Shown: positions 14,257-36,453, counted from the stretch's first letter. The stretch: DNA of 64,000 nt from Candidatus Goldiibacteriota bacterium (GCA_016937715.1 JAFGWA010000017.1:3227-67226); one strand, 5' to 3'. Made by a program: numbers and translations. The notes: generated from the sequence alone by a model not told the origin.

Positions 14257-14676
14257 ATTTCCTCCTGAATAAAATATTTTTAAAAGTTTTCAACATTGTA
14301 AAAACTCATCAATAACAATTATTTAAATATATATAACCTTTGTTGTAGTTGTTGTAGTGTTAATATGACTAATAACCTTAAAAATATTATATTTTAAAAA
14401 GCTTTATAAGTTTTGTTAATGTTAATTGTTATAATATTTTAATACATAACCCGGTATTTATCCACAAAAAAATGACCCTATTTTTATTAACATTTTAATG
14501 AACACGTTATTATGATAGTTGTTAACATAAACCGTATTAATAAATAATATAATAAAGAAAGCAAATTTAAACACACAGAAGGTTAGATGCTTTGAGGCTT
14601 TGAGGCTTGACAAGCAAATAAAGGATGAAAAATATTCAGCTTCTGTGTAATGACGGGGTAACAAAAAAATTAATAT
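14257..14676. other. dnaA-dnaN intergenic spacer: candidate oriC/DNA-unwinding element (AT-rich, one perfect DnaA box)
   Basis: A 420-bp gene-free, extremely AT-rich spacer in the classical oriC position. It has a perfect TTATCCACA box at 14458-14466 and short direct repeats (gttgttgtagt x2; gctttgagg x2). Confidence 0.45.
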
Positions 14677-16020
14677 TTACTTTTTTACTCTCATTACTAT
14701 TTCATTTATTGAGTTTTTAAATTTATCGTCTGATTTTACAAGTTTATCAACTTTATTTATTGCGTGCATAACTGTTGTGTGGTCTTTGCCTCCAAAATAC
14801 TGGCCTATTTGAACAAGCGAATAATCTGTAAGGCTGCGCGTGATATACATTGCCACCTGGCGTGATTTTGCTATGTTTTCATACCTTTTTTTGGACAAAA
14901 GGTCCTGTACTTTTATTCCGAAATAATCGGAAACTATCTGTTGTATCATATCAATACCTATTTTTTTTGCCTGGTCAAACTTTGGATTTCTTATTTTAAT
15001 TGCTTTCTTGGCAAGTTCAATATCAAGTTCTTCGGGGTTTTCCGCCAGTATCAGCAGGTTTTTAAGCGTGCTTTCAAGTTCCCTTATATTATTATCAATG
15101 TGTTCCGCTATATACCCGATAACATTATCAGGAACTTCTTTGTTGGATTCCATGGCTTTCTGTTTTAATATAGCCACCCTTGTTTCAAAGTCCGGAGCAA
15201 GAATATCCGCAATAATTCCGGAAGAGAACCTTGATTTAAGTCGGTCTTCAAGCTTCAAGTCGCCGGGCGGGGAATCTGATGTGGCCACAATCTGTTTGTT
15301 GTGGTTGTATAATTCATTAAAAGTATGAAAGAATTCTTCAATTGTGGCGTCGCCGCGTAAAAACTGAATGTCATCCACTAAAAGCAGGTCAGTGCTTCTG
15401 TAGCGGTTTTTAAATTCATCCATCTTATTTTCGCGGATTCCCTGAGTCACTTCAAAAAGGAATTTTTCCGCTGTGATTATCATTATTTTTTTTGAAGGAT
15501 CCTGTTCATAAATGTATGTTCCGATAGCGTGTAAAAGGTGTGTTTTTCCAAGCCCTACGCCCCCATAGATGAACAAAGGGTTGTATGCCTGTCCCGGTGC
15601 CTCTGCCACTGCTTTACAGGCAGCGTGCGCGAACCTGTTGCTTTGGCCTACTATGAAGTTATCAAATCGGAAACGCGAGTTTAATGAAGGTATAAAAGGG
15701 TGCTGAGGGTCAAGCGGAAGCAATATCTGCTGTTCTTTAATGACAATTTTGGATGACTGGTCTTTTTTGGGTTCTTCAGTTTTAATAACTTCCAATTTAA
15801 GGTCAGATACCTGCCTAAAACCCTTTTCAATTGATTCCATAAGCTCGTTTTTATACTTGGCAAGGGTTTTTTGATGAAGAGAGTCAGGTATGGTGATTAC
15901 AACACAGTCTTTTTCTGTGTTAAAAGACACAGTAGCCTTTTCAAGCCATAAGTTAAGGCCGCTATTTTCTTCTTTAATGGAATTAATAATAACTTCCCAG
16001 TTAAATTCTTTGTTTTTCAA
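14677..16020 (-). CDS. dnaA: chromosomal replication initiator DnaA (start revised to TTG at 16020; the ORF-track ATG at 16092 would read through two DnaA boxes)
   Basis: AAA+ Walker A GGVGLGKTHL and the C-terminal DNA-binding domain. Homology to the DnaA N-terminus begins at ...EFNWEVI. A TTG (minus 16020) is preceded by AAGGGG 8 nt upstream, and perfect TTATCCACA boxes at 16049-16057 and 16071-16079 fall inside the longer ATG-initiated frame. Confidence 0.9.
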   Translation of the reverse strand: MKNKEFNWEVIINSIKEENSGLNLWLEKATVSFNTEKDCVVITIPDSLHQKTLAKYKNELMESIEKGFRQVSDLKLEVIKTEEPKKDQSSKIVIKEQQILLPLDPQHPFIPSLNSRFRFDNFIVGQSNRFAHAACKAVAEAPGQAYNPLFIYGGVGLGKTHLLHAIGTYIYEQDPSKKIMIITAEKFLFEVTQGIRENKMDEFKNRYRSTDLLLVDDIQFLRGDATIEEFFHTFNELYNHNKQIVATSDSPPGDLKLEDRLKSRFSSGIIADILAPDFETRVAILKQKAMESNKEVPDNVIGYIAEHIDNNIRELESTLKNLLILAENPEELDIELAKKAIKIRNPKFDQAKKIGIDMIQQIVSDYFGIKVQDLLSKKRYENIAKSRQVAMYITRSLTDYSLVQIGQYFGGKDHTTVMHAINKVDKLVKSDDKFKNSINEIVMRVKK

Positions 16021-16048
16021 GCTTAAATACCCCTTGTTTTTACACAAC

Positions 16049-16144
16049 TTATCCACAAGTTGAAGTATAGTTATCCACAATATTAATGCCATATAAATAA
16101 GACATTTAATAAGTTATTAAGATTTTCCACAAAACTTATCAACA
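16049..16144. promoter_or_regulatory. DnaA-box cluster upstream of dnaA (autoregulatory region and/or oriC box array)
   Basis: TTATCCACA at 16049-16057 and 16071-16079; TTTTCCACA at 16123-16131; TTATCAACA at 16136-16144. Confidence 0.6.
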
Positions 16145-16256
16145 AAGCAATAATACCACATTATGGAATACAAATATACATAAATAATCAAAGTTCTACA
16201 GGACAGCGTATTATAGGAAGATGCGGTTAAAATGTCAAGCGCTATTTAAGAGAGGT

Positions 16257-16967
16257 CTAGTAATTATATGTCAGCAATACGCCCGGATTGTTATCGTAAT
16301 AGGCAGCCTGAACCTTTACAGGAAAGGCAAGGTGAAGCCATGCAGCGTCAAGAGCCGTATAAATTAAACAGGCGGAAGTTATAGATGTAACAATAATTGC
16401 AGTGGTTAATTTTTCATTGGCTTGTTTTTCCATATTTTTTAGTAAGTTATAATTATCCATAGTAGTGTTGTTAATTTCATCATAAATACTATTATAATCA
16501 GAAATATAATTGGAATATCCCAGCCATGAAAAAGCCGTTGTTGCCGCGCCGAATATATCTGCGGCAATAAGAAGCTTGCCGGGCAGCGGAATTTCATTTT
16601 CCCTGTTTTTGGCGGCTATTTCCGCCTCCCTTGCCGCTTCTGCCGCTGCTTCTGCCTGAGCCTGCGCAGGGTCTTTTTTTATACCAAGAAAATCTCCTAA
16701 ATCATCAAACATGGTCCTTGTTTTTGTGGGAACAGCTGTCGCAGCGGGTGAAGGTGCCGGTGTTGCCGCGGGGGATGCTGTGGTACCGGGAGTAATAACA
16801 GGCGTTGCAGACATATTCTGAAGTGCAGCTGTTATTGCCGTGGCAGTGGCTGCTACCGATGAATAATCTGTCCCTTCGGCTGCCGCAAAAGGTATTAATG
16901 CAATTGTTAATATAAAAGCCATTACTATTTTTTTCATTCTGTTTCCCCTTTTATTAAGTTTGTCCAT
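16257..16967 (-). CDS. secreted hypothetical protein (Ala/Pro/Thr-rich linker)
   Basis: Signal peptide MKKIVMAFILTIALIPFAAA (the real start is probably this internal Met). Low-complexity ATPAPSPAATAVPT region. No recognisable domain. Confidence 0.4.
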   Translation of the reverse strand: MDKLNKRGNRMKKIVMAFILTIALIPFAAAEGTDYSSVAATATAITAALQNMSATPVITPGTTASPAATPAPSPAATAVPTKTRTMFDDLGDFLGIKKDPAQAQAEAAAEAAREAEIAAKNRENEIPLPGKLLIAADIFGAATTAFSWLGYSNYISDYNSIYDEINNTTMDNYNLLKNMEKQANEKLTTAIIVTSITSACLIYTALDAAWLHLAFPVKVQAAYYDNNPGVLLTYNY

Positions 16968-17000
16968 ATACTATAAAACAAAATATAACCTATGTCCATT

Positions 17001-17037
17001 AATAAATAAAAAAACCCGGGGCTGTTAACCCCGGGTT
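17001..17037 (-). terminator. rho-independent terminator of porin-like paralog A
   Basis: 9-bp GC-rich stem AACCCGGGG/CCCCGGGTT with loop CTGTTAA, followed on the minus strand by TTTTTTTATTTATT. Confidence 0.7.
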
Positions 17038-17056
17038 TTGAAAAGTTAAAGAAGTT

Positions 17057-18481
17057 TTATTTCCAGAGATAGCTTACTGCCACTCCTGAATTAAGATTAC
17101 CGGAATTCTGACCGCTTATAAAATTAGGGCCGGAAATCAGGATATAGGGATTAAGGAACATATCAAGCTTTAAATCGCCTATCACTCCGCTTAAACCGAT
17201 GCTGTAAGACAATTCAGGTGAAATTACATTGTCATATTCCGTGGCTAAGTGGGTAATTTTAGGTTCCGGGCTGAACATTGCAGACTGGAAATCGTATTTT
17301 GTGCCGTTTAAACCAACAAGCGTAAAGTTTACGCCTGAATTTACCGACCATGTTTCGTTAAGCTTTCCTTCAACCGCAAGGTGGAAAGGAATTTCAAAAA
17401 CTGAAGAATTTTCATAGTCGTTGCTTATATAGAACTTGCCAAGTCCTGGACCGCTATTTGTAAAGAATTCCATATACATTAAAGGAGCGCTTTCACCGGA
17501 CATTACAAGTCCGGATGAAACTAATACTTTAAATGATTTGCTTAATTCAAATGTTTTTCCTGTTAAAGCCTGTAATGCCAGTTTGCTGTTGTCAAAAACT
17601 ATTCTGTAGTCGTCATTATTGTTGGGATATTTAACATGTGCTGTAAAGTTGGATTTTGTCCAGTCCAGAAGCGCTATTACAAAGAAGCCTTCGCCTAAAT
17701 CTGTCCTTAATGACAGGTTAAGGTTTGTTTTGGAAGAATCCCTTTTGCTCCAGCCGTTATAAGTATAAGCGTTATACCAGTCTTCGCAGGAATCCAGATG
17801 ATTGTACTGCGTTAAGCTGACTGATACATCAACAGGAAGCCCAATCTTAAGCGACGCACCCGCTTTTAAAGCCATATACTGTACGGAATAGTCCTGTATA
17901 TCGGCATTTGAATAATCTATTATCATGGGCATATCATTAAAATTGGCATCAGAGTCTGAATAATTTAAATTTTTGTAATTATTTTTTTCAGTCGCATACT
18001 GGGCGGAAATACCAAAAGGAATATCGCCTATTTTGTTGGCATATGAAAGGCCAAATACATGATAAAGCATATAATCATAATACATCATGGGAGCAACTAT
18101 ATAGAAATTAGCGCCTTCCATTCCGTATAATACGGAAGGTTTTACTGATATTCCGAATGTTCCATAAGTTGTATTAAATACAGCCTGGCCGCTTATGTAA
18201 TTTTCAGTATTATCCATTTCGGGATTATATCTGTAATCATATAAGTATTCAAATATGGCGGAGTTTCCAAGAAGCGATAAATCCTGCACAAATATGTCTG
18301 TGCCGGTTACGCTTCCTTTTACAAGTACGCCCGGATAATCAGCCTGTGAAGCTTCTTCCACAAGGGTTGTAATTTCAACTTCAGCAGGTACTTCTGCTTT
18401 TACGGTTTTAGCCGCTGCTGCAAATAAAGGAAACGCAGAAGCTATTATAAGAATTGAAACTGTTATTAATATTTTTTTCAT
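17057..18481 (-). CDS. outer-membrane beta-barrel (porin-like) protein, paralog A
   Basis: Signal peptide MKKILITVSILIIASAFPLFAAAA, alternating amphipathic strands, aromatic C-terminus ...VSYLWK. It shares blocks with the next gene (YPGVLVKGSVTG; AVEGKLNETW.VNSGV; GDLKLDMFLNPYILISGPNFISG). Confidence 0.6.
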   Translation of the reverse strand: MKKILITVSILIIASAFPLFAAAAKTVKAEVPAEVEITTLVEEASQADYPGVLVKGSVTGTDIFVQDLSLLGNSAIFEYLYDYRYNPEMDNTENYISGQAVFNTTYGTFGISVKPSVLYGMEGANFYIVAPMMYYDYMLYHVFGLSYANKIGDIPFGISAQYATEKNNYKNLNYSDSDANFNDMPMIIDYSNADIQDYSVQYMALKAGASLKIGLPVDVSVSLTQYNHLDSCEDWYNAYTYNGWSKRDSSKTNLNLSLRTDLGEGFFVIALLDWTKSNFTAHVKYPNNNDDYRIVFDNSKLALQALTGKTFELSKSFKVLVSSGLVMSGESAPLMYMEFFTNSGPGLGKFYISNDYENSSVFEIPFHLAVEGKLNETWSVNSGVNFTLVGLNGTKYDFQSAMFSPEPKITHLATEYDNVISPELSYSIGLSGVIGDLKLDMFLNPYILISGPNFISGQNSGNLNSGVAVSYLWK

Positions 18482-18500
18482 TAATATGTCCCCCGAAAAT

Positions 18501-18540
18501 TTTGTTTAAAAAAAACGCCCGGGCTGTTAACCCGGGCGTT
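18501..18540 (-). terminator. rho-independent terminator of porin-like paralog B
   Basis: Stem AACGCCCGGG/CCCGGGCGTT with the same CTGTTAA loop as the paralog A terminator, followed on the minus strand by a T-run. Confidence 0.7.
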
Positions 18541-18564
18541 TTGTAAATTATATTATTGCCTAAA

Positions 18565-19791
18565 TTACTTCCAGCTGTAAACAACTGCTATGTCGGAATT
18601 AAGGTTCATTCCTGTATTTCCTGAAATGAATTCAGGTCCGCTTAAGAGGAAGTACGGGTTAATGTTCAGATCAAGCTGAAGGTCGCCGATTTTTCCTGTT
18701 ACGCCGATTGCATAGCCAACGTTCGGATCAATGTTAAAGTATCCGTCTTTGCGGTCTTCAGTTAATGATTTAGAATCAGCATCTTCAAGGAATTTAACTG
18801 AAGAAGCACGTGATGCAGCGATTTCTGCGCTAACGCCGGAATTTATTGTCCATGTTTCATTAAGTTTTCCTTCAACAGCAAAGTTTAAAGGAATTGAAAC
18901 ATACATATCTGTGTCTGTATCGCCTAAAGCATATGTTGTTGTTACTCCGGTTGTTTTGTATGTGTGCATTCCAACTGTATCAAGTTCAACAATAACACCT
19001 GAAGCCATCTTTACTGTAAGTGATTCGGTTGCCTTTATGTCTTTTCCAACTAAAGCTGCAAGTGTAAGGTAAGAATCTTCATAGATATTTTCGTCTTCAA
19101 TGTTTGTTGCTTCTACTTTTGTCTTATCTGAAGATGAATTCATTTCGAAATTCACTCCAAGAACTGCTGAAAGTCCGTCGCCAAGTCCGGCCCTTGCTGC
19201 TGCGCCGATATTCATATCGGAGTATACGTTTGTTCTTGTTTCGTTAAGGCTCTTGTCCGCGTTAAGGTCTTTTTCAAGATCCTGTCCGCTTCCCATGCCA
19301 AAATTTAATGAAAGGTCAAGTGCAAGGTCGCCCTTTAATGCAAGGCCAAGTGTTAATCCAAGGTACTGGTCATAATAAGATGTAACGTCGTTGTTTCCGT
19401 CAATTTCTGAATTGTCTACTGCTTCATATCCGTTGTTTTCTACGCCATAAAGAATTCCTGCTGCAACGTCCATTCCTTCAAGTCCTGTTGCATACTGAAG
19501 GCCGATCATGTTGTCGCTTCCGCCAAGTGCCGGGCTTGCTGATAATGCGAATGTTCCAAGGTCTGTTTTTAAAACTGTTAAACCATAAGCATCACCAACG
19601 TATTCAAAAAGTGCTACGTTTGACATCAGGGAGATGTCTGTGATGAATGTCTGCGCTCCAGATACGCTGCCCGGTACTAAAACTCCCGGATAGTTTGCCT
19701 GTGACTGGAGCTTTGTTACCGTGGTTACGCCTGCGAAAGCGGAACCGGCAACGAGTGCGAGTAAAGCTACTACTGTGATAAATTTCTTCAT
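18565..19791 (-). CDS. outer-membrane beta-barrel (porin-like) protein, paralog B
   Basis: Signal peptide MKKFITVVALLALVAGSAFA, C-terminus ...VVYSWK. It is clearly paralogous to 17057..18481. A strong AGGAGGG RBS sits 9 nt upstream of the start. Confidence 0.6.
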   Translation of the reverse strand: MKKFITVVALLALVAGSAFAGVTTVTKLQSQANYPGVLVPGSVSGAQTFITDISLMSNVALFEYVGDAYGLTVLKTDLGTFALSASPALGGSDNMIGLQYATGLEGMDVAAGILYGVENNGYEAVDNSEIDGNNDVTSYYDQYLGLTLGLALKGDLALDLSLNFGMGSGQDLEKDLNADKSLNETRTNVYSDMNIGAAARAGLGDGLSAVLGVNFEMNSSSDKTKVEATNIEDENIYEDSYLTLAALVGKDIKATESLTVKMASGVIVELDTVGMHTYKTTGVTTTYALGDTDTDMYVSIPLNFAVEGKLNETWTINSGVSAEIAASRASSVKFLEDADSKSLTEDRKDGYFNIDPNVGYAIGVTGKIGDLQLDLNINPYFLLSGPEFISGNTGMNLNSDIAVVYSWK

Positions 19792-20193
19792 TCGTATTGC
19801 CCTCCTAAAGGATTTTGAACTGCCTGTTTTTTTTAATTACCTTGTTTTTTTGGTTCAAATGCTTAACTTTGCTTAAAAATGGGGTAAAGAGCGTTTTTTT
19901 GAACTCTCTTAATCCACCCCCCTTCCTAAAGGGTATTTTATGCTTCTTTATTGCATAAATATCAAGTTAAATTAAGTTTTGCCTGTTTACTTTAATGAAC
20001 GTTTAATAACCCTGCCCTGTTATAATTGAATAAATTATAGCAGATATGGATTTTTTGTCAAGAAAAAATGTAAGTTTATTACGGTATTTTATATTTGAAG
20101 TAAATATTGCGTTAAGATATCATTAATTGTGCAAATACACTTGTTTTATGCTTTTATCTGTGTTAATATCATCAAAAATCACGGGAGGTATTT

Positions 20194-20607
20194 ATGGAAA
20201 AGATATTCAGGCTTGTTCTGGCGGGGATAGTTGCGGGTTTTGTTCTTTTTTTAGTGGCGGCATTGGCTTATAAATACAATAATCAGCTTACAGACCCTTC
20301 TTTACGTTACCTTTTCAGGGAAAATATATCAATGAAGTGGTTTTACAAGCTTCTATTCCTTAATATAGGAATGGGGATGGTAATGGCCGGGTTTTATTCT
20401 GTAATAAACGGCGGGCTTCCGGGTAAAGGGATGATAAAAGGCATATTTATGGGATTTATGATTTGGTTTTTACTTATTACCCAGCCGTTAATTACCCTTA
20501 TAGCGGCAGGAACGCTTACACAGGGGCTTTTAATCTCGTGGCTGGCACAGGGGCTTATAAGCTATGTGGCGGCCGGAATTTGTATTTCTGTGATTTATAA
20601 GTCTTAA
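20194..20607 (+). CDS. hypothetical small membrane protein
   Basis: 137 aa with four predicted TM helices; RBS GGGAGG upstream. Confidence 0.4.
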   Translation: MEKIFRLVLAGIVAGFVLFLVAALAYKYNNQLTDPSLRYLFRENISMKWFYKLLFLNIGMGMVMAGFYSVINGGLPGKGMIKGIFMGFMIWFLLITQPLITLIAAGTLTQGLLISWLAQGLISYVAAGICISVIYKS

Positions 20608-20618
20608 AAAATAAACAG

Positions 20619-20640
20619 TTAAGCATTAAGCAGAAGCGGA
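20619..20640. repeat. TAAGCA(A)TTAAGCAGAAGCG(A/G)A intergenic motif, copy 1
   Basis: ttaagcattaagcagaagcgga; the other copies are at 56858-56880 and 60815-60837. Confidence 0.5.
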
Positions 20641-20758
20641 ATATATGGTGAATTAAAGCTGGCGCTATGGGTATCTCTCATCACTCTGGCGGAGATGATA
20701 GATTGTGGATTTTAAGGCGGGAATTTTTAGATTTAAACACTTAATTGCTAAAACAACT

Positions 20759-20785
20759 GCCGCGGGCTAAAGACCCGCGTCTACC
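20759..20785. repeat. GCCGCGGGCT(A/G)AAGACCCGCGTCTACC hairpin-containing repeat, copy 1 (the inverted copy is at 45234-45261)
   Basis: gccgcgggctaaagacccgcgtctacc here; ggtagacgcgggtcttcagcccgcggac at 45234-45261 is its reverse complement with one substitution. Confidence 0.5.
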
Positions 20786-20826
20786 AAGGCTTTATTCTTC
20801 AAAGCATCTAAACATTCGGTCTCATT

Positions 20827-20860
20827 TATGGGATATGGGATAAATGGTTATGGGATAATG
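20827..20860. repeat. triplicated TATGGGATA motif
   Basis: tatgggatatgggataaatggttatgggataatg. Single TATGGGATA copies recur at about 45551, 55660, 56902 and 60903. Confidence 0.5.
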
Positions 20861-20870
20861 TTTAAAGTTG

Positions 20871-21416
20871 TTAATTATTCCATTCAAATATAAAAGAAAG
20901 GCCGTTTTTGCAGGGAAGTTCACTGCCTTTTATGTTTTTGCCGCCTGTAAGGGCAATTACCCCTTTTGACCATCCCAGTATCCTTCTTGAAAGGTGCGGA
21001 GAGCATGGAAAATCGTTTAAAGTAAGTTTTACCCTGTTATCTTTTATGAATTCCGCCCGGGCGCTGCCGTTTGAATAATATGTGGAAAATATCATAGGGG
21101 CATTTGTAAAAAGCGTGGCAGGTTTCATTCCGGTAAAAAGTTTGTGTGAGCTTTCAAAAGCTTTTTTTGACGCGTAAAAGCCCATTTCTTCAAGTAATGA
21201 AAGGTCGCAATAACCAAAATAAGAATCTGATTTTTCAAGAACTGAAATTAAAGTTTCTATGGGGTACCAGTCAATGTCGGAACATGAATTAATGGTTTCA
21301 AATTCCTGATATTTGTCCAGGAAAGATAAAAGTTTCTGTTCCCCGAATTTTTCTTTTAAATATTCAAGGGTCTGTTTTAAAGTCCTTCCTTTTACCTGCA
21401 TTGCTGTCTCCTTCAA
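20871..21416 (-). CDS. hypothetical cytoplasmic protein
   Basis: 181-aa ORF with reasonable coding composition. No family recognised by eye. Confidence 0.35.
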   Translation of the reverse strand: MKETAMQVKGRTLKQTLEYLKEKFGEQKLLSFLDKYQEFETINSCSDIDWYPIETLISVLEKSDSYFGYCDLSLLEEMGFYASKKAFESSHKLFTGMKPATLFTNAPMIFSTYYSNGSARAEFIKDNRVKLTLNDFPCSPHLSRRILGWSKGVIALTGGKNIKGSELPCKNGLSFIFEWNN

Positions 21417-21465
21417 GTGTGTATGTTTTGACCGGGTTGTTAAGACAGTACAAGGTAATTATACT

Positions 21466-23994: not shown

Positions 23995-24007
23995 TTTTTT
24001 CCTCCGT

Positions 24008-24370: not shown

Positions 24371-24382
24371 TATTTCACCCCG

Positions 24383-26262: not shown

Positions 26263-26283
26263 GTTTTAAGCACCTCTTTTTTC

Positions 26284-26844: not shown

Positions 26845-26856
26845 TAAAAAATCCTC

Positions 26857-27918: not shown

Positions 27919-28532
27919 TTTTTTGTGATAACCGCCATGTTGTATTCTATGATGGGGCCGTAAAACGGAATCTTTTCAAGCAGGTCAGACGCGCTGTTTA
28001 CCAGATTTATAAAAAACGGCATATTTATCGGGCTTACCCTGGCTGAAAAATGTTTTATTTCATAAGGCAGGCTGCAGGGTTTAATAGTTTCTTCAAAACG
28101 TTTCTGTGAAAAATGCTGGTGCCCGCCCATTAAAGTAAGGTGAAGGTAAAAAATGGGGTTGTACCTGTTGGCTTCCAGAATAATTACGGTTTTTCTTGAA
28201 ACCCTGCACATTTCTTTTACCGCGTTTACAGGATCGGCCGCGTGATGCAGCATGTCTTTTTCCACAACAGTGTCAAATGAACCGACCGGATAGTTTAACT
28301 TTTCGCAGTTGCCGGTTTTAAATTCAATACCTGACCCGTCAAACTTTTTCCAGTTAACTGATTCTTCCAGGTCTATGGCTTCTGTTTTTTTAAAAAACGG
28401 CGCCATTAAAACAGCGTCTTCGCCGTCGCCGCATCCGGCGTCCAGCAGCGAATCGCCGGAAAAATACGGTTTTATTTTTTCAAGAATTCTTAATCTGTAT
28501 GACTGCGCGTTTTTTGGGGCGTTACTTGTCAT
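27915..28532 (-). CDS. class I SAM-dependent methyltransferase
   Basis: Motif I LLDAGCGDGED; 4-nt overlaps with both neighbours. Confidence 0.7.
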   Translation of the reverse strand: MTSNAPKNAQSYRLRILEKIKPYFSGDSLLDAGCGDGEDAVLMAPFFKKTEAIDLEESVNWKKFDGSGIEFKTGNCEKLNYPVGSFDTVVEKDMLHHAADPVNAVKEMCRVSRKTVIILEANRYNPIFYLHLTLMGGHQHFSQKRFEETIKPCSLPYEIKHFSARVSPINMPFFINLVNSASDLLEKIPFYGPIIEYNMAVITKK

Positions 28533-29550
28533 ATTTTTTAAGCTCCGGTATTATTTTTGAAAGCGCGGGTACGTCAAAAAACTTGGTGCCTGATATTTCA
28601 TTGGTGACAGCCTGATACATCTGCGAAATAAGGTTTTTCATCTGTGACGGAAGCGGAGGCGGCGCGGTTTTTACAAAAGTTTTCCAGTCATTGCCGCGTT
28701 CTTTTTTGGCTTTTTCCACTTCTTCCGCCCACTGCGTGCCGCGGTAATGCCTGCGTGTTATTTCTTTGCTTATGTGAAAACCGTCTATGGTAAACCTGCA
28801 TTCATCCGGAGTTCCAAGCACATCAACCACAATTAATTCGCCGCTGCTGTTCATGCCGAATTCAAATTTGCCGTCAACGTTTTTAATGCCTGCGGCAGCA
28901 CACCTTTCTGTAATAAGAGAGTTAATTTCAAGAATAAGGCTTTTAACTTTTTTTATGCCGTCTGAGCGAAGGCCGGAAATTACACCGGCTTCTGTCCAGT
29001 CAATGTAGCGGTCAGTATGTTCAAGTTTTGTGGAAACGTCAAGTATGGGTGTCTGTAAATCATCGCCGGGAACAGGCATTTTTTCAAGTCCAAGCGCCTG
29101 AAAAGTAACATCTCCATTTTTAATCCTTTTGAATACGGAAGAACCTTCCGGAAGGCTGTTTCTGTATATAACTTCAAGCGGAATAAGGTAATTGCCTGAA
29201 ACATTTTCATACTGCGCGTAATTATATGTGTTCTTTTCCTTATTATAAGCGGGGCGAATTACGCGCAGGACCTGAACTTTCATTTTATTAAATGGTTTAA
29301 AGGCATTTTCATAGGTAATTACTTTATTTCCCTCTGCAAGCCCAAGAAAGTGGGACTTAATTCCTTTTTTTGCCAATAGGTTAAAAAAGTATGAAGAAAG
29401 AGTGCAAAGCGCGGCGCCTTTATGGTCTATATGGTCCGGCATTTCCCCCCAGTCAAAAACAGAGTATCTGTCAGAAAATGTAAAAGTGCCTTCACCTTCT
29501 GAATTGTCCGTAGCGGCTTTTATTATTTCAACCTCTTTTACGCTGCCCAT
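28522..29550 (-). CDS. purC: SAICAR synthetase-like protein (long eukaryote/archaea-type PurC)
   Basis: SAICAR_synt family motifs: EGEGTFTFSDRYSVFDW, LIPLEVIYRN, DVSTKLE.TDRYI. Confidence 0.65.
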   Translation of the reverse strand: MGSVKEVEIIKAATDNSEGEGTFTFSDRYSVFDWGEMPDHIDHKGAALCTLSSYFFNLLAKKGIKSHFLGLAEGNKVITYENAFKPFNKMKVQVLRVIRPAYNKEKNTYNYAQYENVSGNYLIPLEVIYRNSLPEGSSVFKRIKNGDVTFQALGLEKMPVPGDDLQTPILDVSTKLEHTDRYIDWTEAGVISGLRSDGIKKVKSLILEINSLITERCAAAGIKNVDGKFEFGMNSSGELIVVDVLGTPDECRFTIDGFHISKEITRRHYRGTQWAEEVEKAKKERGNDWKTFVKTAPPPLPSQMKNLISQMYQAVTNEISGTKFFDVPALSKIIPELKKYDK

Positions 29551-29658
29551 GATTGCCTCCTGATAACGTTAATTTATACCGAAAGTATTATACAACAAGA
29601 GTGTGAAAACAGATTAGTTTTTTTATGGTGTTTTTAGCCTGGCAGGCGGGGTATTTAA

Positions 29659-29852
29659 TTTTTTATTTACTTCTGACCCTTATATCTTCCATGCATCCGT
29701 CTCTTGGTTTACCGGGGTTTGTTGTATATAGTGGCAGGCGCGCCTTTTAATATCGAGCCTATAATAAAATTGCTCGATATTATGCGCGGCAGTTGATTTG
29801 ATGTTTGTTTTTACTTCCGACCCTCAGACCCTCTGTGCATCTGTCTTTCAGC
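29659..29852. repeat. two direct copies of the GATGCACAGA-type intergenic repeat (29659-29708 and 29808-29852, minus orientation) flanking a 13-bp-stem hairpin (29751-29782)
   Basis: tttacttcTgaccct...tgcatccgtctcttgg versus tttacttcCgaccctcagaccctctgtgcatctgtctttcagc; hairpin AATATCGAGC-loop-GCTCGATATT in between. Confidence 0.6.
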
Positions 29853-29864
29853 TTAACAGCGGTT

Positions 29865-30060
29865 GGGTATAAACCTCGAAACTATCTCGGCAAGGGAGAG
29901 ATACCACTCGCCATAAACTGATGATAATGGCTCGGGTATAAATCATCTCTAAGCCTCGAAACTACCTCGGCAAGAGCGTGATACCACTCGCCATAAACTG
30001 ATGATAATGGCTCGGGTATAAATCATCTCTAAGCCTCGAAACTACCTCGGCAAGAGCTGA
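29865..30060. repeat. tandem direct repeat, unit about 80 bp x 2.6 copies (69-bp, 80-bp and partial 47-bp units)
   Basis: Units begin with GGGTATAAA at 29865, 29934 and 30014. Units 2 and 3 are identical over the region inspected; unit 1 lacks the 11-bp TCATCTCTAAG insert. Confidence 0.85.
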
Positions 30061-30061
30061 T

Positions 30062-31261
30062 TTACCAGCCGGCTCCTGTAGATTTATTAGGGACAGCGCG
30101 GATTGGGGTTGCAACGGTTTCAGGTGACGAAGAAACCGGTGTAGGTGTTGGTTGTACTATATTGGCGGAAACTTTGCCACCTTTTTTTACAGTGGCTTTT
30201 ATTGGTGCCGCTGTGGTTTGTAATGTTTTAACGGCAACAGGCTGTGAAACTGTTTTATTGCCGGGAACTACAGCAGGTAAAGTTTTATCCGCGGACGCGG
30301 GTGTCGGCGTGTATGTAGGCAGAGGCGCGTCAAGAATTCTGTGCAGCCAATAAGGCGAGACGCCGCCGCTTTCATCAGAAATTTTCATCCTGTTGGTGCC
30401 ATCGGGCCTCATTATCCATATTTCAGGAATATATTTATTATTTATGAAATTTACAAAAACAATATCTTTGCCGTCATAAGAATACACCGGGGAATGGCTT
30501 TTTCCGTCAAGGGTGATATTTTCTGTTTTTCCGGAAGCGATATCATGTACGGCAATGTTTGATGTTTCGCCTTCAAAAAGCGTAAAGACAATTTTTTTGC
30601 CGTCCGGCGAAAAAGAAGGTGAAGCGGCCTTTTTATTGGTATAGTTTGTAAGGCGTGTTTCGTTTATAAAATCTTTTTCCCTTGAATATATATTGGAAGT
30701 ATTTTCATTTTCTATTTTTATGTAAATAAGTTTGTTGTCTTTTGACAGCGAGGGGGAAACGCAATCGTGCGTATCTGTCAGCGCCACGGGGTTATACCCG
30801 TCCCTGTTTATCTTCCAGATATTTTTGCGGCGCGAATAAATTATTTCTGACGAATCGGCTGTCCAGCCGCCGGGATTGCTCATTTTTAAATTTGTGGTGT
30901 CGCCTTCAAGGGAATCCCGGTCAAAAGTAATCTGCGTTGCCCTGTTATTTTTTAAATTACCGGTCCAAAGGTTAAAGTACCCGTTTTGATGCACCCAATA
31001 CGCGATTGTCCAGCCGTCCGGAGAAACACTTGGAAACCATTTGCTTTTTCCGTCAGGAAAAAGTTCCTGTTTTGAATTTCCGTCGCGGTCAATCCAGTAA
31101 AGCGAACCGTTTGATGTATATATTATTTTATCAAGCGCCGGCACCGCTGTAGGTACAGGCGTGGGTACGGCTTTAATCTCTGTCTTTTTTTTCTTACAGC
31201 CGCTGAAAGGAATAATTACGCACAGCAAGAGAATGAAGATTATGAAAATTTTATTTTTCAT
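30062..31261 (-). CDS. TolB-like beta-propeller lipoprotein with a Pro/Thr-rich C-terminal tail
   Basis: Lipobox signal MKNKIFIIFILLLCVIIPFSGC; PD40/WD40-like repeats (DG..IAYW, PSFSPDGKKIVF); C-terminal TPTPASADKTLPAVVP... low-complexity tail. Confidence 0.6.
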   Translation of the reverse strand: MKNKIFIIFILLLCVIIPFSGCKKKKTEIKAVPTPVPTAVPALDKIIYTSNGSLYWIDRDGNSKQELFPDGKSKWFPSVSPDGWTIAYWVHQNGYFNLWTGNLKNNRATQITFDRDSLEGDTTNLKMSNPGGWTADSSEIIYSRRKNIWKINRDGYNPVALTDTHDCVSPSLSKDNKLIYIKIENENTSNIYSREKDFINETRLTNYTNKKAASPSFSPDGKKIVFTLFEGETSNIAVHDIASGKTENITLDGKSHSPVYSYDGKDIVFVNFINNKYIPEIWIMRPDGTNRMKISDESGGVSPYWLHRILDAPLPTYTPTPASADKTLPAVVPGNKTVSQPVAVKTLQTTAAPIKATVKKGGKVSANIVQPTPTPVSSSPETVATPIRAVPNKSTGAGW

Positions 31262-32340
31262 TTAAAACTGCCTTTCGCCGGTGTGGTATCGGCTATTTCT
31301 GAAGGTGCCGGAAAAAACGCATTAAAGAAAGAAGTAAGTTTTTTCTTTTTGCCGGTTTCATATTCAAGGCTGTATATATCGTTGTTTTCAACATAAAAAA
31401 TAAATTTACCGTCTTTTGAAAAAACAGCGCAGCAGCCGGGCTTGTCTGTTACTTTAAGGTCTGCTTTGGGGTCTTTCTGCTGTTTTGCCTCTGTTTTATT
31501 AATATAAATAACCGGTATGTTTTTTTCTGTATTTTTAATGTAGGAAAAAACCTGTTGTTTGGCTTCAAGTTTTGCCCTGTTGAATGAAACTTCATTTTTA
31601 AGATAATTTGTGGAAAACAGTGTTTTTATACCAAGCCCCGATGCGTTTATTGTTTTTATTCCGGCATTGTCGGAATAAATAATTGAATCGTCGCCGGACC
31701 AGTCAAATGAAGGAAATATTATTTCACTTTTAGCCAGTTGTATTTCGTTTGTAAGGTCTGCGTTCATCACAAAAATTCCGCTGTTATTTTTTGTTTTTTC
31801 CCTGAAGAAAACAAATTTTGCGTAATTTGGAGACAGTTTAAAAGAAGTGACATCGTGGTGCTGTGTCAATGCGGACTGCGAAATGCCGATTTTATCAACT
31901 GACCAGATATTTCCATGCATTAAGTAATAAATATTTTTGCCTTCTTTGTCCCACTGTATAAGCCCTCTGTTGTAAAGGTCGGGGATTACTTTGTTTGAAG
32001 TATATTTTGTAAGGGCTTCCTGCCTGGTACCGTCAGTATTCATTATATATAAATTTACAGAGCCGCTGCGGTCGGAAAACATTGCTATTTTGTTTCCTGT
32101 GGGGTCAACGCAGGGAGACCAGTTATTTCCGGAGGATGTAAGTATTTCTTTTTTTGAACCGTCTTCATTCATAATACCAATCTGGTATTTACCCTTGCTG
32201 TCCTGCATAACAAAATAGAGGGCTTTTTTAAAAACGGGCTTGGCATCTTCTTCTATAAGGGCAGAAACAGGCATAGTAAAAATAAAGGATATTATTAATA
32301 AGGAAAGTACTGCAAATAAATTGCCTTTTTTTACGCCCAT
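31258..32340 (-). CDS. TolB-like beta-propeller periplasmic protein
   Basis: Signal peptide; PD40-like repeats (SPCVDPTGNKIAMFSDRSG, SVNLYIM); translationally coupled to the downstream paralog. Confidence 0.55.
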   Translation of the reverse strand: MGVKKGNLFAVLSLLIISFIFTMPVSALIEEDAKPVFKKALYFVMQDSKGKYQIGIMNEDGSKKEILTSSGNNWSPCVDPTGNKIAMFSDRSGSVNLYIMNTDGTRQEALTKYTSNKVIPDLYNRGLIQWDKEGKNIYYLMHGNIWSVDKIGISQSALTQHHDVTSFKLSPNYAKFVFFREKTKNNSGIFVMNADLTNEIQLAKSEIIFPSFDWSGDDSIIYSDNAGIKTINASGLGIKTLFSTNYLKNEVSFNRAKLEAKQQVFSYIKNTEKNIPVIYINKTEAKQQKDPKADLKVTDKPGCCAVFSKDGKFIFYVENNDIYSLEYETGKKKKLTSFFNAFFPAPSEIADTTPAKGSFK

Positions 32341-32415
32341 TTTTACCTCATAAGGTATATTTTCCTTTATAATATATGCTTTTTATGGAAGTGTCAACAG
32401 TAAATAAGGGTTTTA

Positions 32416-33444
32416 TTACTTAATAAACATGGCATCGCCGTATGAAAAAAACCTGTATTTATTTTCAATGGCCGATTTATAGGCCTTTTTAGCGTTTTTT
32501 TCTCCGGCAAACGCGTAAACAAGAGCAAGAAGCGTTGTTTTTGGAAGGTGAAAATTGGTTATAAGGCAGTCTACGGCCTTAAACTGATAACCGGGGTATA
32601 TATATATGGAAGTATTGCTTTTGCCGCTTTTTATTTTATTTTGGCTGTACGCGCTTTCAAGAGCTCTTAAAGAAGTGGTGCCTACGGCTATAATTCTGCC
32701 GCCTGATTCTTTCGCGGTATTTATGGCTGCCGACGTTTCAGGTGAAATTTCATATTCTTCATTATGTATTTTATGTTCCCTTATATCAGGTTCTGTTACC
32801 GGCGCGAAAGTTCCAAGCCCGGTATGCAGGGTTATATATTCAACATACACTCCGGATGTTTTTATCCTGTTCAACAGGGCGGGGGTAAAATGTAATCCTG
32901 CTGTTGGCGCGGCTGTAGCGCCGTCTTTTCTGGCATATACGGTCTGATACCTTTCCCTGTGAAAAGCGCTGTCATCTTCTTTAATATAAGGCGGAAGAGG
33001 AATTTTTCCGTGTTTTTCAAATGCTTTTAATATTTCTTCCCTGCCTGCGGAAAAATAAACTGCAACTGTTTTGCCGAATTTTTTTTTGATTAAAGCTGAA
33101 ATATTTCCGTCAAGCAAAACCGTATCGCCTTCTTTTACCCTGCGTGAATTTCCCATTATGGCTTCCCAGTAATTTTCTTTAAATGAAAGCAAAAGCAGTT
33201 CTATGGCGGCGCCTGATTTTGTCCTGCCGTAAATGCGCGCGGGTATAACGCGGGTATCGTTTAAAACAAGGCAGTCGCCGGGCTTTAAATATTCCGTAAT
33301 GTTTTCAAACAGCCTGTGTTCAATCACGCCGGTTTTTTTATCTGTTACAAGAAGGCGCGATTTGTCCCTTTCCGGGCTTGGAACCTGCGCGATTAATTCC
33401 TGCGGAAGTTCATAATCATAGTTTTCAAGTTTGAATTTGTCCAT
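32416..33444 (-). CDS. queA: S-adenosylmethionine:tRNA ribosyltransferase-isomerase
   Basis: N-terminus MDKFKLENYDYELPQELIAQVPSPERDKSRLLV plus full-length QueA homology. Confidence 0.9.
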   Translation of the reverse strand: MDKFKLENYDYELPQELIAQVPSPERDKSRLLVTDKKTGVIEHRLFENITEYLKPGDCLVLNDTRVIPARIYGRTKSGAAIELLLLSFKENYWEAIMGNSRRVKEGDTVLLDGNISALIKKKFGKTVAVYFSAGREEILKAFEKHGKIPLPPYIKEDDSAFHRERYQTVYARKDGATAAPTAGLHFTPALLNRIKTSGVYVEYITLHTGLGTFAPVTEPDIREHKIHNEEYEISPETSAAINTAKESGGRIIAVGTTSLRALESAYSQNKIKSGKSNTSIYIYPGYQFKAVDCLITNFHLPKTTLLALVYAFAGEKNAKKAYKSAIENKYRFFSYGDAMFIK

Positions 33445-33633
33445 GCGTGAAATTATAGCATATAAGATTGTTTTTTAACCTCCCGTTTAATACATGTTTA
33501 AGGTGAAATATAGTCGTTGAAACATTAAATCTATAAAGCTGCGGTAAAAACTGATAAATCTTTTTTAAGAAAAGCAGGCAGGGCGGCTGTTTATTTTTAA
33601 GGTTTTTTCAGATGAGAGGGTATAAAAATTTTA

Positions 33634-34746
33634 TTAAACCGGCAGGCCTTCATCGTTATATTTTTTTGTGTCCGTAAGTTCGCCGTTTTCATAGCGCCCT
33701 TCAAGTTTCACTTTTCCGTTTTCAAAATAACTTGTATAATTGCCCGCGGGTATGCCTTCTTCAAAATACTGTTCCACCTGAACCTGACCGGAAGGGTAGT
33801 ACATTTTATAAAGCCCCTGCTGCTTGCCGTTATTATACGCGCCGGCCACTTTAAGTTTTCCTGATTTATAGTACAGTTTATAAAATCCGTGTTCCTGCCC
33901 GTTTAGGTATTCGCCTTCAACTTTAAGTTCTCCGGTTTCATAAAAAAGTTTATAGGGCCCTTCTTCAAGCCCTTCTTTATATATACCCTGCAGTTTAATA
34001 CCGCCGTTTTCATAATATAAAGTAAAGTTTCCGTTTTCTTTTCCGTTTACATATTCACCTGTCATTTTTGGCATGCCGTTTTCGTAATATTTCTGCACAG
34101 GCCCGTTTTTAACCCCGGCAGCATAAGCCTCTTTTACCATTATATTTCCATTTTCATAATAAAGTTTGTGAACCCCGTTTTCTTTGCCCTGAATATAAAT
34201 GCCTTCAAGCTTGACGGCGCCGGAAGGGTAGAACAGTTTAAACACACCTTCTTCTTTTCCGTATTTGTAAGACCCGTCTAACTTTTTATTTCCGTTCTCA
34301 TAAAAAGTTATAAAGCTTCCGTGTTTAATTCCGTCCCTGTAGGTTTCGTTAAGTTTAAGGATACCGCCTTCATAATAAGTGCGGTTAACGGCTTCGCCTG
34401 TAAGTTCGTTTATGGCGCGTTCATTTTTTAGGCTGCCGTCCGCGAACCAGCTTTGATAAGGCCAGGTAATTTCGCCGTCCTGATAGGTTTCCTGTTCGGC
34501 CGGTTTGCCGTTGTCATAATACCAGGTAACAGTTCCGTCTTTTATGGAATTATTTTCATAGGTTATTTTAGCCGCCGTCTTTATGCCGGACTGGTCTATT
34601 TTTACGCATGCGGTTTCACCCGATATTGTTTCGCCTTCTTTTAAAACACTGCCGTCCGGGTTAAAAGTCCAGACAGCCGCAAGGACGGTGGTATCCTTAA
34701 AAAATTTCTGCTGCTGTCCCTGACGGATGCTTTTAAAAGTTATCAT
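33634..34746 (-). CDS. MORN-repeat protein (YwqK/COG2849-like)
   Basis: At least 12 tandem repeats of about 23 aa with the pattern G.(Y/W).YYENG.(L/K)..G.Y.NG...G. Confidence 0.7.
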   Translation of the reverse strand: MITFKSIRQGQQQKFFKDTTVLAAVWTFNPDGSVLKEGETISGETACVKIDQSGIKTAAKITYENNSIKDGTVTWYYDNGKPAEQETYQDGEITWPYQSWFADGSLKNERAINELTGEAVNRTYYEGGILKLNETYRDGIKHGSFITFYENGNKKLDGSYKYGKEEGVFKLFYPSGAVKLEGIYIQGKENGVHKLYYENGNIMVKEAYAAGVKNGPVQKYYENGMPKMTGEYVNGKENGNFTLYYENGGIKLQGIYKEGLEEGPYKLFYETGELKVEGEYLNGQEHGFYKLYYKSGKLKVAGAYNNGKQQGLYKMYYPSGQVQVEQYFEEGIPAGNYTSYFENGKVKLEGRYENGELTDTKKYNDEGLPV

Positions 34747-34856
34747 TTTTCACCGTGTTATTTTTTTTCATAATTCATAATATCATACAGCGTGTTATTT
34801 TCAATTAAGAAAAAAAAGAGTTTTCCGCGGACGCCTCCTTATGCAATAATGTTTTT

Positions 34857-35579
34857 ATGAACTTACAAGCCGCTTTAAAAAAGCATCTAGAGGGCAGTCC
34901 TGCCGTTATAAACGGAGAGATGTTTAATAATATACTCATTTACTCAAATGAGTTAATTGAAAAAAACAGGCAGTTTAATCTTACCGCAATTACCGCCCCC
35001 GAAGAAGTTGCAGTAAAACATGTCCTTGATTCCGTACACCTGTTTGGGGCGATGTCAGGCGATGTTCCGGTTTCGCTTGCGGATGCCGGAACCGGCGCGG
35101 GTTTTCCTGGTATCATAGCCGCCATATTAAATGAAAAAATTAAAGTTACCCTTGTTGAATCAAACGGGAAAAAAGCAAATTTTTTAAACGGTGTAATTAA
35201 TAAACTAAAACTTAATAACGCAGTTGTAATTCAAAGCCGCAGTGAAGAATGTTCCCGCGATAAAAAAATGCGTCAAAAATTTTCAGCAGTGACGATGAGA
35301 GCGTTTGCGGAATTTAAAACAGCAATGGAACTGACATCTGCGCTGTGCGCGCTTAAAGGAAAAATTTATTACTTTGCAAGCGCGGATCAAGTTAAAGAAA
35401 TTAAACGCGAAGGAAATATTTATAACGAACTGAAATTAAAATTTGAAAAAATCTATGATTACACTTTACCGCTTGATCTTGGAAAAAGGCACATTGTAAT
35501 TTTAAGCAGGACAGGGGACACGCCTAATTGTTATCCAAGAACATTTCAAAAGATAAAAATTAAACCTATCAGCTTCTAA
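34857..35579 (+). CDS. rsmG: 16S rRNA (guanine527-N7)-methyltransferase RsmG (GidB)
   Basis: GidB family: HVLDS, the SAM-binding motif DAGTGAGFPGI, and a length of about 240 aa. Confidence 0.85.
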   Translation: MNLQAALKKHLEGSPAVINGEMFNNILIYSNELIEKNRQFNLTAITAPEEVAVKHVLDSVHLFGAMSGDVPVSLADAGTGAGFPGIIAAILNEKIKVTLVESNGKKANFLNGVINKLKLNNAVVIQSRSEECSRDKKMRQKFSAVTMRAFAEFKTAMELTSALCALKGKIYYFASADQVKEIKREGNIYNELKLKFEKIYDYTLPLDLGKRHIVILSRTGDTPNCYPRTFQKIKIKPISF

Positions 35580-35597
35580 TTGTTCCACGTGGAACAA
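35580..35597. promoter_or_regulatory. parS site 1 (perfect TTGTTCCACGTGGAACAA)
   Basis: An 18-bp perfect palindrome whose 16-bp core TGTTCCACGTGGAACA fits the ParB-binding consensus tGTTnCACGTGnAACa. It lies immediately after the rsmG stop. Confidence 0.8.
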
Positions 35598-35921
35598 TTT
35601 AGATTATTACAAATCATTTTGTTAAAACTTTAATTTTTTCATAAACTTTCCGGAATATTTTCTTCTGATATATTTATATAATTTATCCGTTTAAGTCTCG
35701 TTAAAATATACTATTCTAAATAAAAATTATTAAGCAGATTGTATTTTTTAATAGAATAGATATTTATAGTCAGCAATACAGATTTCTTAATAATTAATTG
35801 AATCTGAATAAATTTATTACCTTATAGTCTGACTTAATAATATTTAAATATAGATATTTTGTTTTATCACGCTGATATATGTATTAATAAAATTTAATTT
35901 TCAAAGTTTTCAATTCAATCA

Positions 35922-35939
35922 TTGTTCTACGTGGAACAA
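35922..35939. promoter_or_regulatory. parS site 2 (one mismatch: TTGTTCTACGTGGAACAA)
   Basis: Single C>T change in the left half-site; the exact mirror image of site 3. Confidence 0.65.
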
Positions 35940-36062
35940 TGAGAAGTTAAATAAGAGAATACTATCCTTAAGAAATATATATAAGCAATGCCTGCTTATG
36001 GTAATAGTACCGCATATATAGCCGCGTAACTTAATTAAACATAAGCTGCTTAAACACACCTA

Positions 36063-36080
36063 TTGTTCCACGTAGAACAA
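36063..36080. promoter_or_regulatory. parS site 3 (one mismatch: TTGTTCCACGTAGAACAA)
   Basis: Reverse complement of site 2. Confidence 0.65.
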
Positions 36081-36348
36081 TCTTTTAAGTATGGCAATAA
36101 TCATATTTATACTATAAAAATATAAGATAATGAATCAATACCGGAGGATAAAAACACATGCTTAAGCGCCTTTTTTGGTATCTATTAAAATGTAAAATTA
36201 ACTGATATGTATTAAATAATTACAGCGTTACAAATTTATGGTTGTGAATGTTAATTACAATAACAAGCATAAATAAATGTTTTGATGCATAACAATATTA
36301 TCAGAGAAAATATAAAGTCAAAGCAATCAAACATTATAAATACGCAAA

Positions 36349-36366
36349 TTGTTCCACGTGGAACAA
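36349..36366. promoter_or_regulatory. parS site 4 (perfect TTGTTCCACGTGGAACAA)
   Basis: Perfect 18-bp palindrome, 88 bp upstream of the recF start. Confidence 0.8.
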
Positions 36367-36453
36367 CTGAAAATTCTATAAAAATATATGTCTTGAAAAA
36401 GATATTCTATTGGTGTATCTTTGTCTCAATAGAAATATATTTCCGGAGGCAGG

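Follow-up and report, generated by a model that had tools for sequence, protein, structure and literature searches.

A likely bipartite replication origin at dnaA and a separate parS array at rsmG–recF in Goldbacteria

Described origins and the dnaA locus

The chromosomal origin of replication (oriC) of Bacillus subtilis is bipartite, with incA/B upstream of dnaA and incC in the spacer between dnaA and dnaN. The distal DnaA boxes of incC function in either orientation (PMC6669920), and a basal unwinding system has been defined as a DnaA box with at most two mismatches, a spacer of at most 16 bp and at least three DnaA-trios with a middle adenine (PMC8287927). In Escherichia coli, oriC is separated from dnaA and is found at gidA/mnmG–mioC, near gidB/rsmG. 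Here, the position of oriC is considered for a 64-kb stretch of DNA from a Candidatus Goldiibacteriota bacterium (the window; JAFGWA010000017.1, 3227–67226), in which DnaA boxes flank dnaA and gene orientation changes strand beside rsmG. The initial annotation had given two locations for the origin, one at dnaA and one at 34.8–36.4 kb, detached from dnaA, without choosing between them. The results described below indicate that the origin is likely to be located at the dnaA locus (~14.26–16.25 kb) and to be bipartite, with unwinding in the dnaA–dnaN spacer, the parS array near rsmG serving as a centromere, and the orientation switch being a product of rearrangement. This result belongs to a well-known origin type, the B. 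subtilis-like bipartite oriC, here in Goldbacteria.

Relatives of the dnaA and recF loci of the window were obtained through DnaA and RecF protein homologues and the contigs that encode them. The closest named relatives of both proteins belong to Candidatus Goldbacteria (Goldiibacteriota) metagenome-assembled genomes, and six Goldbacteria dnaA loci (L085, L086, L087, L171, L172 and L173; 60–70% DnaA identity) share the gene order dnaA, dnaN, gyrA, histidine kinase, NosD-like, dciA and gyrB. An independent Logan contig agrees with the window at every position over 16.1 kb around dnaA (0 mismatches); same-organism contigs are limited to short assemblies of this kind. A DnaA scan of genome contigs and a scan of metagenome contigs with a Goldbacteria DnaA alignment, both built on universal DnaA motifs, returned only matches of at most 45% identity and no close relatives. 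The dnaA locus contains the following features.

13147–14256, minus strand: dnaN, the DNA polymerase III beta clamp (NCBIfam TIGR00663, E = 7e-88)
14257–14676: dnaA–dnaN spacer, proposed oriC unwinding module, comparable to B. subtilis incC (420 bp, 23% GC)
14287–14295, minus strand: dnaN-proximal DnaA box TGTTGAAAA (two mismatches)
14339–14356, minus strand: DnaA-trio-like trinucleotide repeat TAC AAC AAC TAC AAC AAA on the dnaA-coding strand (Tandem Repeats Finder period 9, 2.1 copies, 100% match)
14358–14366, minus strand: box-like ATATTAACA with the conserved core ATTAACA, directly 5′ of the trinucleotide repeat
14384–14444: AT-rich core, candidate DNA unwinding element (nearest-neighbour dG −58.4, z = 3.27, 90% AT)
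14416–14449, minus strand: conserved blocks TTATGTATTAAAATA and AATTAACATTAA (invariant or near-invariant alignment columns)
14458–14466, plus strand: perfect DnaA box, reading TGTGGATAA on the dnaA-coding strand and unchanged in 6 of the 7 loci aligned
14484–14492, plus strand: partner DnaA box TTATTAACA, with two mismatches and starting 26 bp from the start of the perfect box
14677–16020, minus strand: dnaA (447 aa from the TTG at 16020; TIGR00362, E = 1.5e-141)
16049–16144, plus strand: cluster of four DnaA boxes in the dnaA leader (two perfect, two one-mismatch)
16210–16238, minus strand: dnaA promoter TTGACA-17-TATAAT (12/12 match), upstream of the box cluster

This locus shares several properties with the B. 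subtilis origin. Box clusters are present on both sides of dnaA, and the AT-rich dnaA–dnaN spacer carries distal boxes, a box-like motif that leads directly into a trinucleotide repeat, AT-rich DNA and the dnaN ribosome-binding site. A further likeness is the (CTA)n repeat found in L172, which we take to match the arrangement of incC, where (CTA)n, the complement of the 3′-GAT-5′ DnaA-trios, comes after a box. In contrast to B. subtilis, the strong Goldbacteria boxes point away from the repeat, the proximal one is a degenerate ATTAACA, and box and repeat are not separated by a GC-rich clamp. Most Goldbacteria repeats are also of the form (T/A)AC, which corresponds to CAA in the canonical frame and lacks the middle adenine of the 3′-GAT-5′ trios. 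Finally, transcription upstream of dnaA is directed toward the origin in Goldbacteria and, for rpmH, away from it in B. subtilis.

Strand skew, DnaA boxes and the dnaA–dnaN spacer

To separate coding from replication effects, GC skew was measured at third-codon and four-fold degenerate sites. The raw GC skew is strongly negative over 1–13 kb, near zero over 14–35 kb and positive beyond. The plus-strand skew at four-fold sites has the following values.

1–14.3 kb, minus-strand genes: −0.03
16–35 kb, minus-strand genes: +0.23
35–45 kb, plus-strand genes: +0.13
45.7–52.9 kb, minus-strand genes: +0.13
53–60.7 kb, plus-strand genes: +0.17

Because the minus-strand genes at 45.7–52.9 kb share the sign of their plus-strand neighbours, the sign of the skew tracks the DNA strand rather than the strand of the genes. 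Judged in this way, the 16–35 kb block resembles lagging-strand genes. In a binomial change-point fit to the 7,223 third-position G/C sites of the window, the switch falls at 12–15 kb, with the best position at 12.5 kb and a position of 14.5 kb being 2.6 log units worse. A switch at 35–36.5 kb fits 28 log-likelihood units less well than the best position and gives no improvement over a model without a switch. The same change of sign is observed directly in relatives, in which the skew at third codon positions flips at dnaA in the same direction (−0.375 to +0.236 in L172, −0.18 to +0.15 in L173 and −0.16 to +0.03 in L085). When the likelihood profiles of the seven loci are summed, the best switch is found 300 bp before the dnaA stop codon, within ~0.5 kb of the spacer. 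Relative to this best position, the pooled fit is 6 log units worse at the spacer, 21 worse upstream of dnaA and 40–46 worse at 3 kb to either side.

The distribution of DnaA boxes points to the same locus. Perfect TTATCCACA boxes are found at only three positions in the 64 kb, 14458, 16049 and 16071, and all three flank dnaA, in agreement with the initial annotation, which had recognised boxes only around this gene. One-mismatch boxes at 16123 and 16136 have the same orientation as the three perfect boxes and complete the cluster of four in the dnaA leader. This cluster (4 sites with at most one mismatch versus 0.12 expected) was reached in 0 of 300 shuffles, comparable clusters are present upstream of dnaA in all six relatives, and the window and each of these relatives have box clusters to either side of dnaA. 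The start codon of dnaA is most likely the TTG at 16020, as it is preceded by an AAGGGG ribosome-binding site and the homologues have lengths of 446–450 aa; the longest dnaA open reading frame (ORF), which starts at 16092, would place two DnaA boxes within the coding sequence. The earlier count of four boxes upstream of dnaA holds only if this TTG is the start codon. The DNA-binding signature of DnaA, GGKDHTTVMHA, is intact and invariant among the homologues. Between the last box of the cluster (16136–16144) and the dnaA promoter (16238–16210) there are only ~65 bp. Trios to the right of the cluster (after 16144) were considered and rejected, since only two consecutive NTN triplets are present and the dnaA promoter occupies the region. 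The leader cluster is proposed to be autoregulatory, to be the second half of a bipartite origin, or both.

An alignment of the dnaA–dnaN spacer from seven Goldbacteria loci (the window and the six relatives) shows that the order and spacing of its elements are conserved. Read in the dnaA-coding orientation, one or two degenerate TGTTaATAA boxes are followed by the TGTGGATAA box, TTATGTATTAAAATA and (T)TATTAACATTAA; a ~48-bp AT-rich stretch then leads to ATTAACA, six trinucleotide units and more AT-rich DNA, and the layout ends with a third box, TGTGGAnAA, and the dnaN ribosome-binding site. The AT-rich stretch retains its length in the relatives but not its sequence, and in the window the AT-rich core at 14384–14444 is the least stable 60-bp stretch of the whole 64 kb. 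The partner of the perfect box is found at a spacing of 28–30 bp in the relatives and is itself perfect in L086. At the dnaN-proximal position, a one-mismatch box (TGTGGACAA, TGTGTATAA, TGTGCATAA or TGTGGAAAA) is present in L085, L086, L171 and L172.

The trinucleotide repeat is aligned in all seven loci. In the frame scored by script, five loci have an adenine at the middle position of 5–6 of the six units; the counts for L171 and L173 were taken by eye from the alignment, as the script scored the wrong motif there. The box that adjoins the repeat has three mismatches in the window, and at the equivalent place in L172 the sequence is TTATTAACA, two mismatches from TTATCCACA. The L172 repeat next to it reads GTA CTA CTA CTA CTG CTA, the canonical trio complement, and this pair conforms to the published definition of the basal unwinding system (PMC8287927). 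Given its position, its periodicity and its alignment with the canonical L172 array, a trio-like role would be the best reading of the (T/A)AC repeat. A different unwinding candidate, located to the right of the perfect box (a 12-bp spacer ending in GACC, then CTA TTT TTA TTA at 14479–14490, toward dnaA), was rejected because in L085 the equivalent boxes follow the dnaA stop codon by only 35–73 bp, too little space for such an element, and because the segment is unconserved. As a separate observation, the ~150-bp dnaA-side part of the spacer, which is absent from 5 of the 6 aligned relatives, contains a perfect tandem GCTTTGAG repeat (2.5 copies, 14589–14608).

These features are compatible with the following mechanism. 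The four leader boxes, positioned between a consensus promoter and the dnaA start, would probably autoregulate dnaA and raise the local concentration of DnaA. In the spacer, DnaA bound to the TGTGGATAA box, its partner and the third box near dnaN would bracket the ~48-bp AT-rich core and the (T/A)AC repeat, and DnaA may then oligomerise on this repeat beside ATTAACA, as it does on the B. subtilis DnaA-trios. Of the two forks of a bidirectional origin at this site, the leftward would be co-directional with dnaN, gyrA and gyrB, and the rightward would run head-on into dnaA and the next 18 kb. It is also possible, though doubtful, that Goldbacteria have a variant basal unwinding module, in which the trio array has drifted to (T/A)AC, the adjacent box has degenerated to ATTAACA, the strong boxes point outward from 35–100 bp away, and the origin is permanently flanked by a head-on housekeeping block of at least 10–25 kb in several lineages. 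If such a module exists, DnaA would be loaded onto single-stranded DNA with a geometry unlike the box-to-trio hand-off of at most 16 bp in B. subtilis. The conserved (T/A)AC repeat offers a testable variant for studies of DnaA-trio recognition.

The rsmG–recF spacer and the strand switch

The second location lies at the divergent junction beside rsmG and the spacer that follows it, where the features are these.

34747–34856: divergent junction between a MORN-repeat gene and rsmG (110 bp; no DnaA box with two or fewer mismatches)
34857–35579, plus strand: rsmG (TIGR00138, E = 3.7e-41)
35580–36453: rsmG–recF spacer with four parS sites (874 bp, 25% GC, no ORF longer than 63 aa)
36393–36421, plus strand: recF promoter-like site TTGAAA-17-TATCTT, in a region nearly identical in L089
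36454–37551, plus strand: recF (TIGR00611, E = 7.7e-96)
37514–37529: fifth parS, within the 3′ end of recF, with a counterpart at the same position in L089 (11061) and L174 (11061)

The AT-rich, gene-free spacer of ~870 bp with a parS array that the initial annotation had reported beside rsmG is thus present as described. Its parS sites (TGTTCCACGTGGAACA or one-mismatch variants) are found at 35581, 35923, 36064 and 36350, and the window contains 5 parS matches versus 0.2 expected. The last codons of recF embed the fifth site, and the RecF C-terminus is hence constrained both by coding and by predicted ParB binding. At lengths of 100 and 200 bp, helix stability in the window is lowest in this spacer. 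The dnaA–dnaN and rsmG–recF spacers are nevertheless about equally unstable, and neither helix stability nor AT-richness discriminates between the two loci. DnaA boxes are not enriched in the rsmG–recF spacer: none with one or no mismatch is present in 35580–36453, and three with up to two mismatches are found versus 4.1 expected.

The conservation pattern, observed directly in the relatives, also differs from that expected of an origin at this location. Compared with L089, the closest relative at this locus (82% RecF identity), the spacer is conserved only in the parS sites, the recF promoter and the ribosome-binding site, and the window has an extra ~340 bp that contains one parS. A parS at the rsmG–recF locus is also present in L088, L089, L090 and L174, and in L174 the spacer is reduced to 95 bp with one parS. 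In L088, an HTH_38/HTH_23 gene (8922–9887), which is probably insertion sequence (IS) 30-like, is inserted between two perfect parS sites of the spacer. The spacer appears to tolerate insertions. The sign of the skew is identical on both sides of rsmG–recF in L088, L089 and L174, with no switch.

In comparison with E. coli oriC, this locus is similar in that rsmG stands beside an AT-rich intergenic region and a divergent junction, away from dnaA, and dissimilar in that the spacer has no DnaA-box enrichment, skew switch or mnmG neighbour; it has parS instead, and its length is unconserved. A closer likeness is found in Pseudomonas aeruginosa, where four parS sites, including the perfect parS2/3 palindrome, are near oriC (PMC4368675). 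The 16-bp palindrome TGTTCCACGTGGAACA is identical to parS2/3, and in both organisms several copies occur within a few kb and no more than ~20 kb from the origin. The two clusters differ in that four sites of the window share one non-coding spacer rather than being located in genes, and in that no parA or parB gene is found adjacent to the array or elsewhere in the window. In L171, a 606-aa protein in which a ParB_N domain is fused to TPR repeats is encoded ~2 kb upstream of dnaA (5959–7779). Sites of this type are usually close to the origin (PMC7333895), and the rsmG–recF parS locus is 14–41 kb from dnaA, depending on the lineage, in four lineages. The array is most probably an ordinary origin-proximal chromosomal centromere rather than an origin, with ParB binding predicted from its motifs.

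The gene-orientation switch was compared across the same relatives, in which synteny is directly seen to vary. In the relative represented by L085 and L088 (a 1.2-Mb contig), queA, the TolB-like genes, rsmG, recF, purC, efp, accBC, thiC, dnaA, dnaN and gyrA are all on one strand; no divergent junction is present, and recF is 14 kb upstream of dnaA. Relative to L085/L088, L173/L174 show an inversion of the queA-to-recF segment, so that their switch is found between purC and queA. A single additional inversion, affecting queA and the two TolB-like genes, separates the window from L174 and shifts the switch to the junction of the MORN-repeat gene with rsmG; this pair is also divergent in L174 and L089. 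Because the switch is displaced in one relative (L174) and absent in another (L088), the gene orders indicate that it is a movable, lineage-specific product of rearrangement rather than a fixed mark of the origin. The breakpoints of the queA–tolB inversion lack convincing inverted repeats. One of these breakpoints, relative to L174, is the 511-bp gap between purC and a TolB-like gene, and this gap contains an 80-nt tandem repeat (29870–30054; 2.3 copies, 92–94% identity, no Rfam match).

The genes between dnaA and the switch would be transcribed against the rightward fork. The initial annotation regarded such an 18-kb head-on block as atypical; it is indeed unusual, although thiC and its neighbours are upstream of dnaA on the same strand in 4 of the 6 relatives (L085, L086, L087 and L173), and the block is therefore not an accident of the window genome. 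A recent inversion of the 16–35 kb block was considered as the cause of its skew and was rejected, because the block is co-oriented with dnaA in these same four relatives and its skew matches the present direction of replication.

Competing explanations and neighbouring features

Several results weigh against an origin at dnaA with unwinding in the dnaA–dnaN spacer. Gene orientation alone favours 35 kb. The best change point of the window itself, at 12.5 kb, falls inside gyrA and not in the spacer, the left-side skew of this lineage is weak (−0.03 to −0.08, and ~0 in the 3.5 kb beyond the window), and the skew analysis is local in scope, covering 64 kb of the genome and 21-kb pieces of the relatives. 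As the pooled loci are orthologous, codon preferences of individual genes could contribute to the summed signal; the same DNA-strand skew sign is nevertheless seen in upstream genes of either strand and in upstream genes that are not orthologous. In the spacer, the box count alone is not significant (4 sites with up to two mismatches versus 2.1 expected, P = 0.15). The window repeat has the conserved adenine in only 2 of 6 trios when read in the canonical frame; the alternative frame fits 6 of 6, but the nearest correctly oriented box is then 35–46 bp away (45 bp in the window), where at most 16 bp is allowed. A role as −35 elements of dnaN promoters would suit the conserved TTAACA motifs equally well.

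This last point leads to the explanation in which oriC consists only of the upstream boxes and the adjacent AT-rich DNA (16.0–16.25 kb), and the spacer elements form a DnaA-regulated dnaN promoter, with TTAACA as its −35 elements, and a leader with an unstructured, CAA-rich repeat. The upstream cluster is the sole statistically enriched one, TTAACA-17-TAAAAT in the spacer scores 10/12 as a promoter-like site on the minus strand, the repeat lies 70–82 nt before the dnaN start in 5 of 7 loci, and the trio geometry is non-canonical. We nevertheless regard this explanation as unlikely, as the pooled skew prefers the dnaA 3′ end and the spacer over the upstream region by ~15 log units, the ~65 bp between boxes and promoter leave little room for an unwinding element, and it is the dnaA–dnaN spacer that holds the 60-mer of lowest stability in the window. 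The canonical (CTA)n trio array of L172 beside TTATTAACA argues in the same direction, and in B. subtilis the unwinding region is likewise the dnaA–dnaN spacer (PMC6669920). That neither locus is the origin, with the skew step at 12–17 kb being the scar of a past rearrangement or the origin lying outside the window, seems very improbable. Such a scenario would agree with the weak left-side skew, with the several rearrangements in the neighbourhood and with the use of local sequence only, but the change from negative to positive skew at dnaA is seen again in at least five relatives with differing flanking genes, it coincides with the only DnaA-box clusters, and the conserved thiC–dnaA–gyrB synteny implies no recent breakpoint at dnaA. 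The least probable explanation, and a highly unlikely one, is that oriC lies in the AT-rich rsmG–recF spacer (35.6–36.4 kb) beside the strand switch, with dnaA separated from its origin as in E. coli. The pivot of divergent gene orientation at 34.8 kb, the low helix stability of the spacer and the usual nearness of parS to origins (PMC7333895) would be in keeping with this location, which fails every test applied here: the skew does not switch there in the window or in three relatives, and the 16–35 kb block is skewed like lagging-strand genes; sites with up to two mismatches fall below expectation; conservation is confined to parS and the recF promoter in a spacer that measures only 95 bp in L174 and is split by an IS-like gene in L088; and the strand switch is absent or displaced in relatives. 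Of the two locations given by the initial annotation, the bipartite dnaA origin with its head-on block is thus supported by skew, boxes and spacer conservation, and the detached origin is not supported.

A likely origin at dnaA and a probable centromere at rsmG–recF are thereby assigned in a candidate phylum without a cultured member. The literature consulted contained no origin analysis of Goldbacteria, and the one Goldbacteria genome paper among it makes no mention of dnaA, GC skew or a replication origin. The case illustrates that gene-orientation switches can mislead origin calls after local inversions, and that synonymous-site skew combined with a comparison of relatives settles the question even from a 64-kb fragment. 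The head-on block next to oriC recurs across lineages with efp, accBC and thiC, joined by recF and purC in some of them, and departs modestly from the expectation that such housekeeping genes are co-oriented with replication.

The remaining annotated genes flank the dnaA locus on both sides.

Left end of the window, minus strand: 3D-domain protein, cyclase, HAD phosphatase and Crp
3421–6012, minus strand: gyrB
6259–6543, minus strand: dciA, a small gene for a helicase-loading factor (PF05258)
Between dciA and gyrA, minus strand: NosD-like protein and histidine kinase
10649–13108, minus strand: gyrA
16257–34746, minus strand: head-on block, with three outer-membrane-protein-like genes, thiC/thiE, accC, accB, efp, pepQ, a methyltransferase, purC, two TolB-like genes, queA and the MORN-repeat gene

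Annotated genes from 254 to 34746 form the minus-strand run that had been claimed for 1–34746, with the exception of one plus-strand gene at 20194–20607. From 34857 to 45036, all nine genes are on the plus strand, as had been stated; those after recF are signalling genes, and beyond 45036 orientation is mixed. The exceptional gene at 20194–20607 encodes a 137-aa multi-pass membrane protein that has no family match and shares 55% identity with the syntenic gene of a relative; its opposite orientation is retained in six relatives, often beside a UbiA gene.

In the Goldbacteria string, gyrA precedes gyrB, and recF is missing from the usual dnaA–dnaN–recF–gyrB cluster. The gene dciA is found in the string dnaA, dnaN, gyrA, histidine kinase, NosD-like, dciA, small ORF and gyrB in 5 of the 6 relatives (L085, 19187–19468; L086, 19403–19687; L087, 13291–13569; L171, 19926–20210; L173, 19326–19622), and the L172 contig ends earlier. 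No tRNA genes were found in the window, and an Rfam scan of its whole length identified no RNA family, so that no known structured RNA is present in the dnaA–dnaN or rsmG–recF spacer. Genes similar to thiC and thiE are present at 21466–23421, yet the same scan, at gathering thresholds, detected no thiamine pyrophosphate (TPP) riboswitch in the window. Finally, the plus-strand gene at 52945–55581 encodes an 878-aa protein with a DUF11 repeat and an end that resembles the C-terminal sorting domain of type IX secretion, which suggests this type of secretion in a Goldbacteria-like organism.

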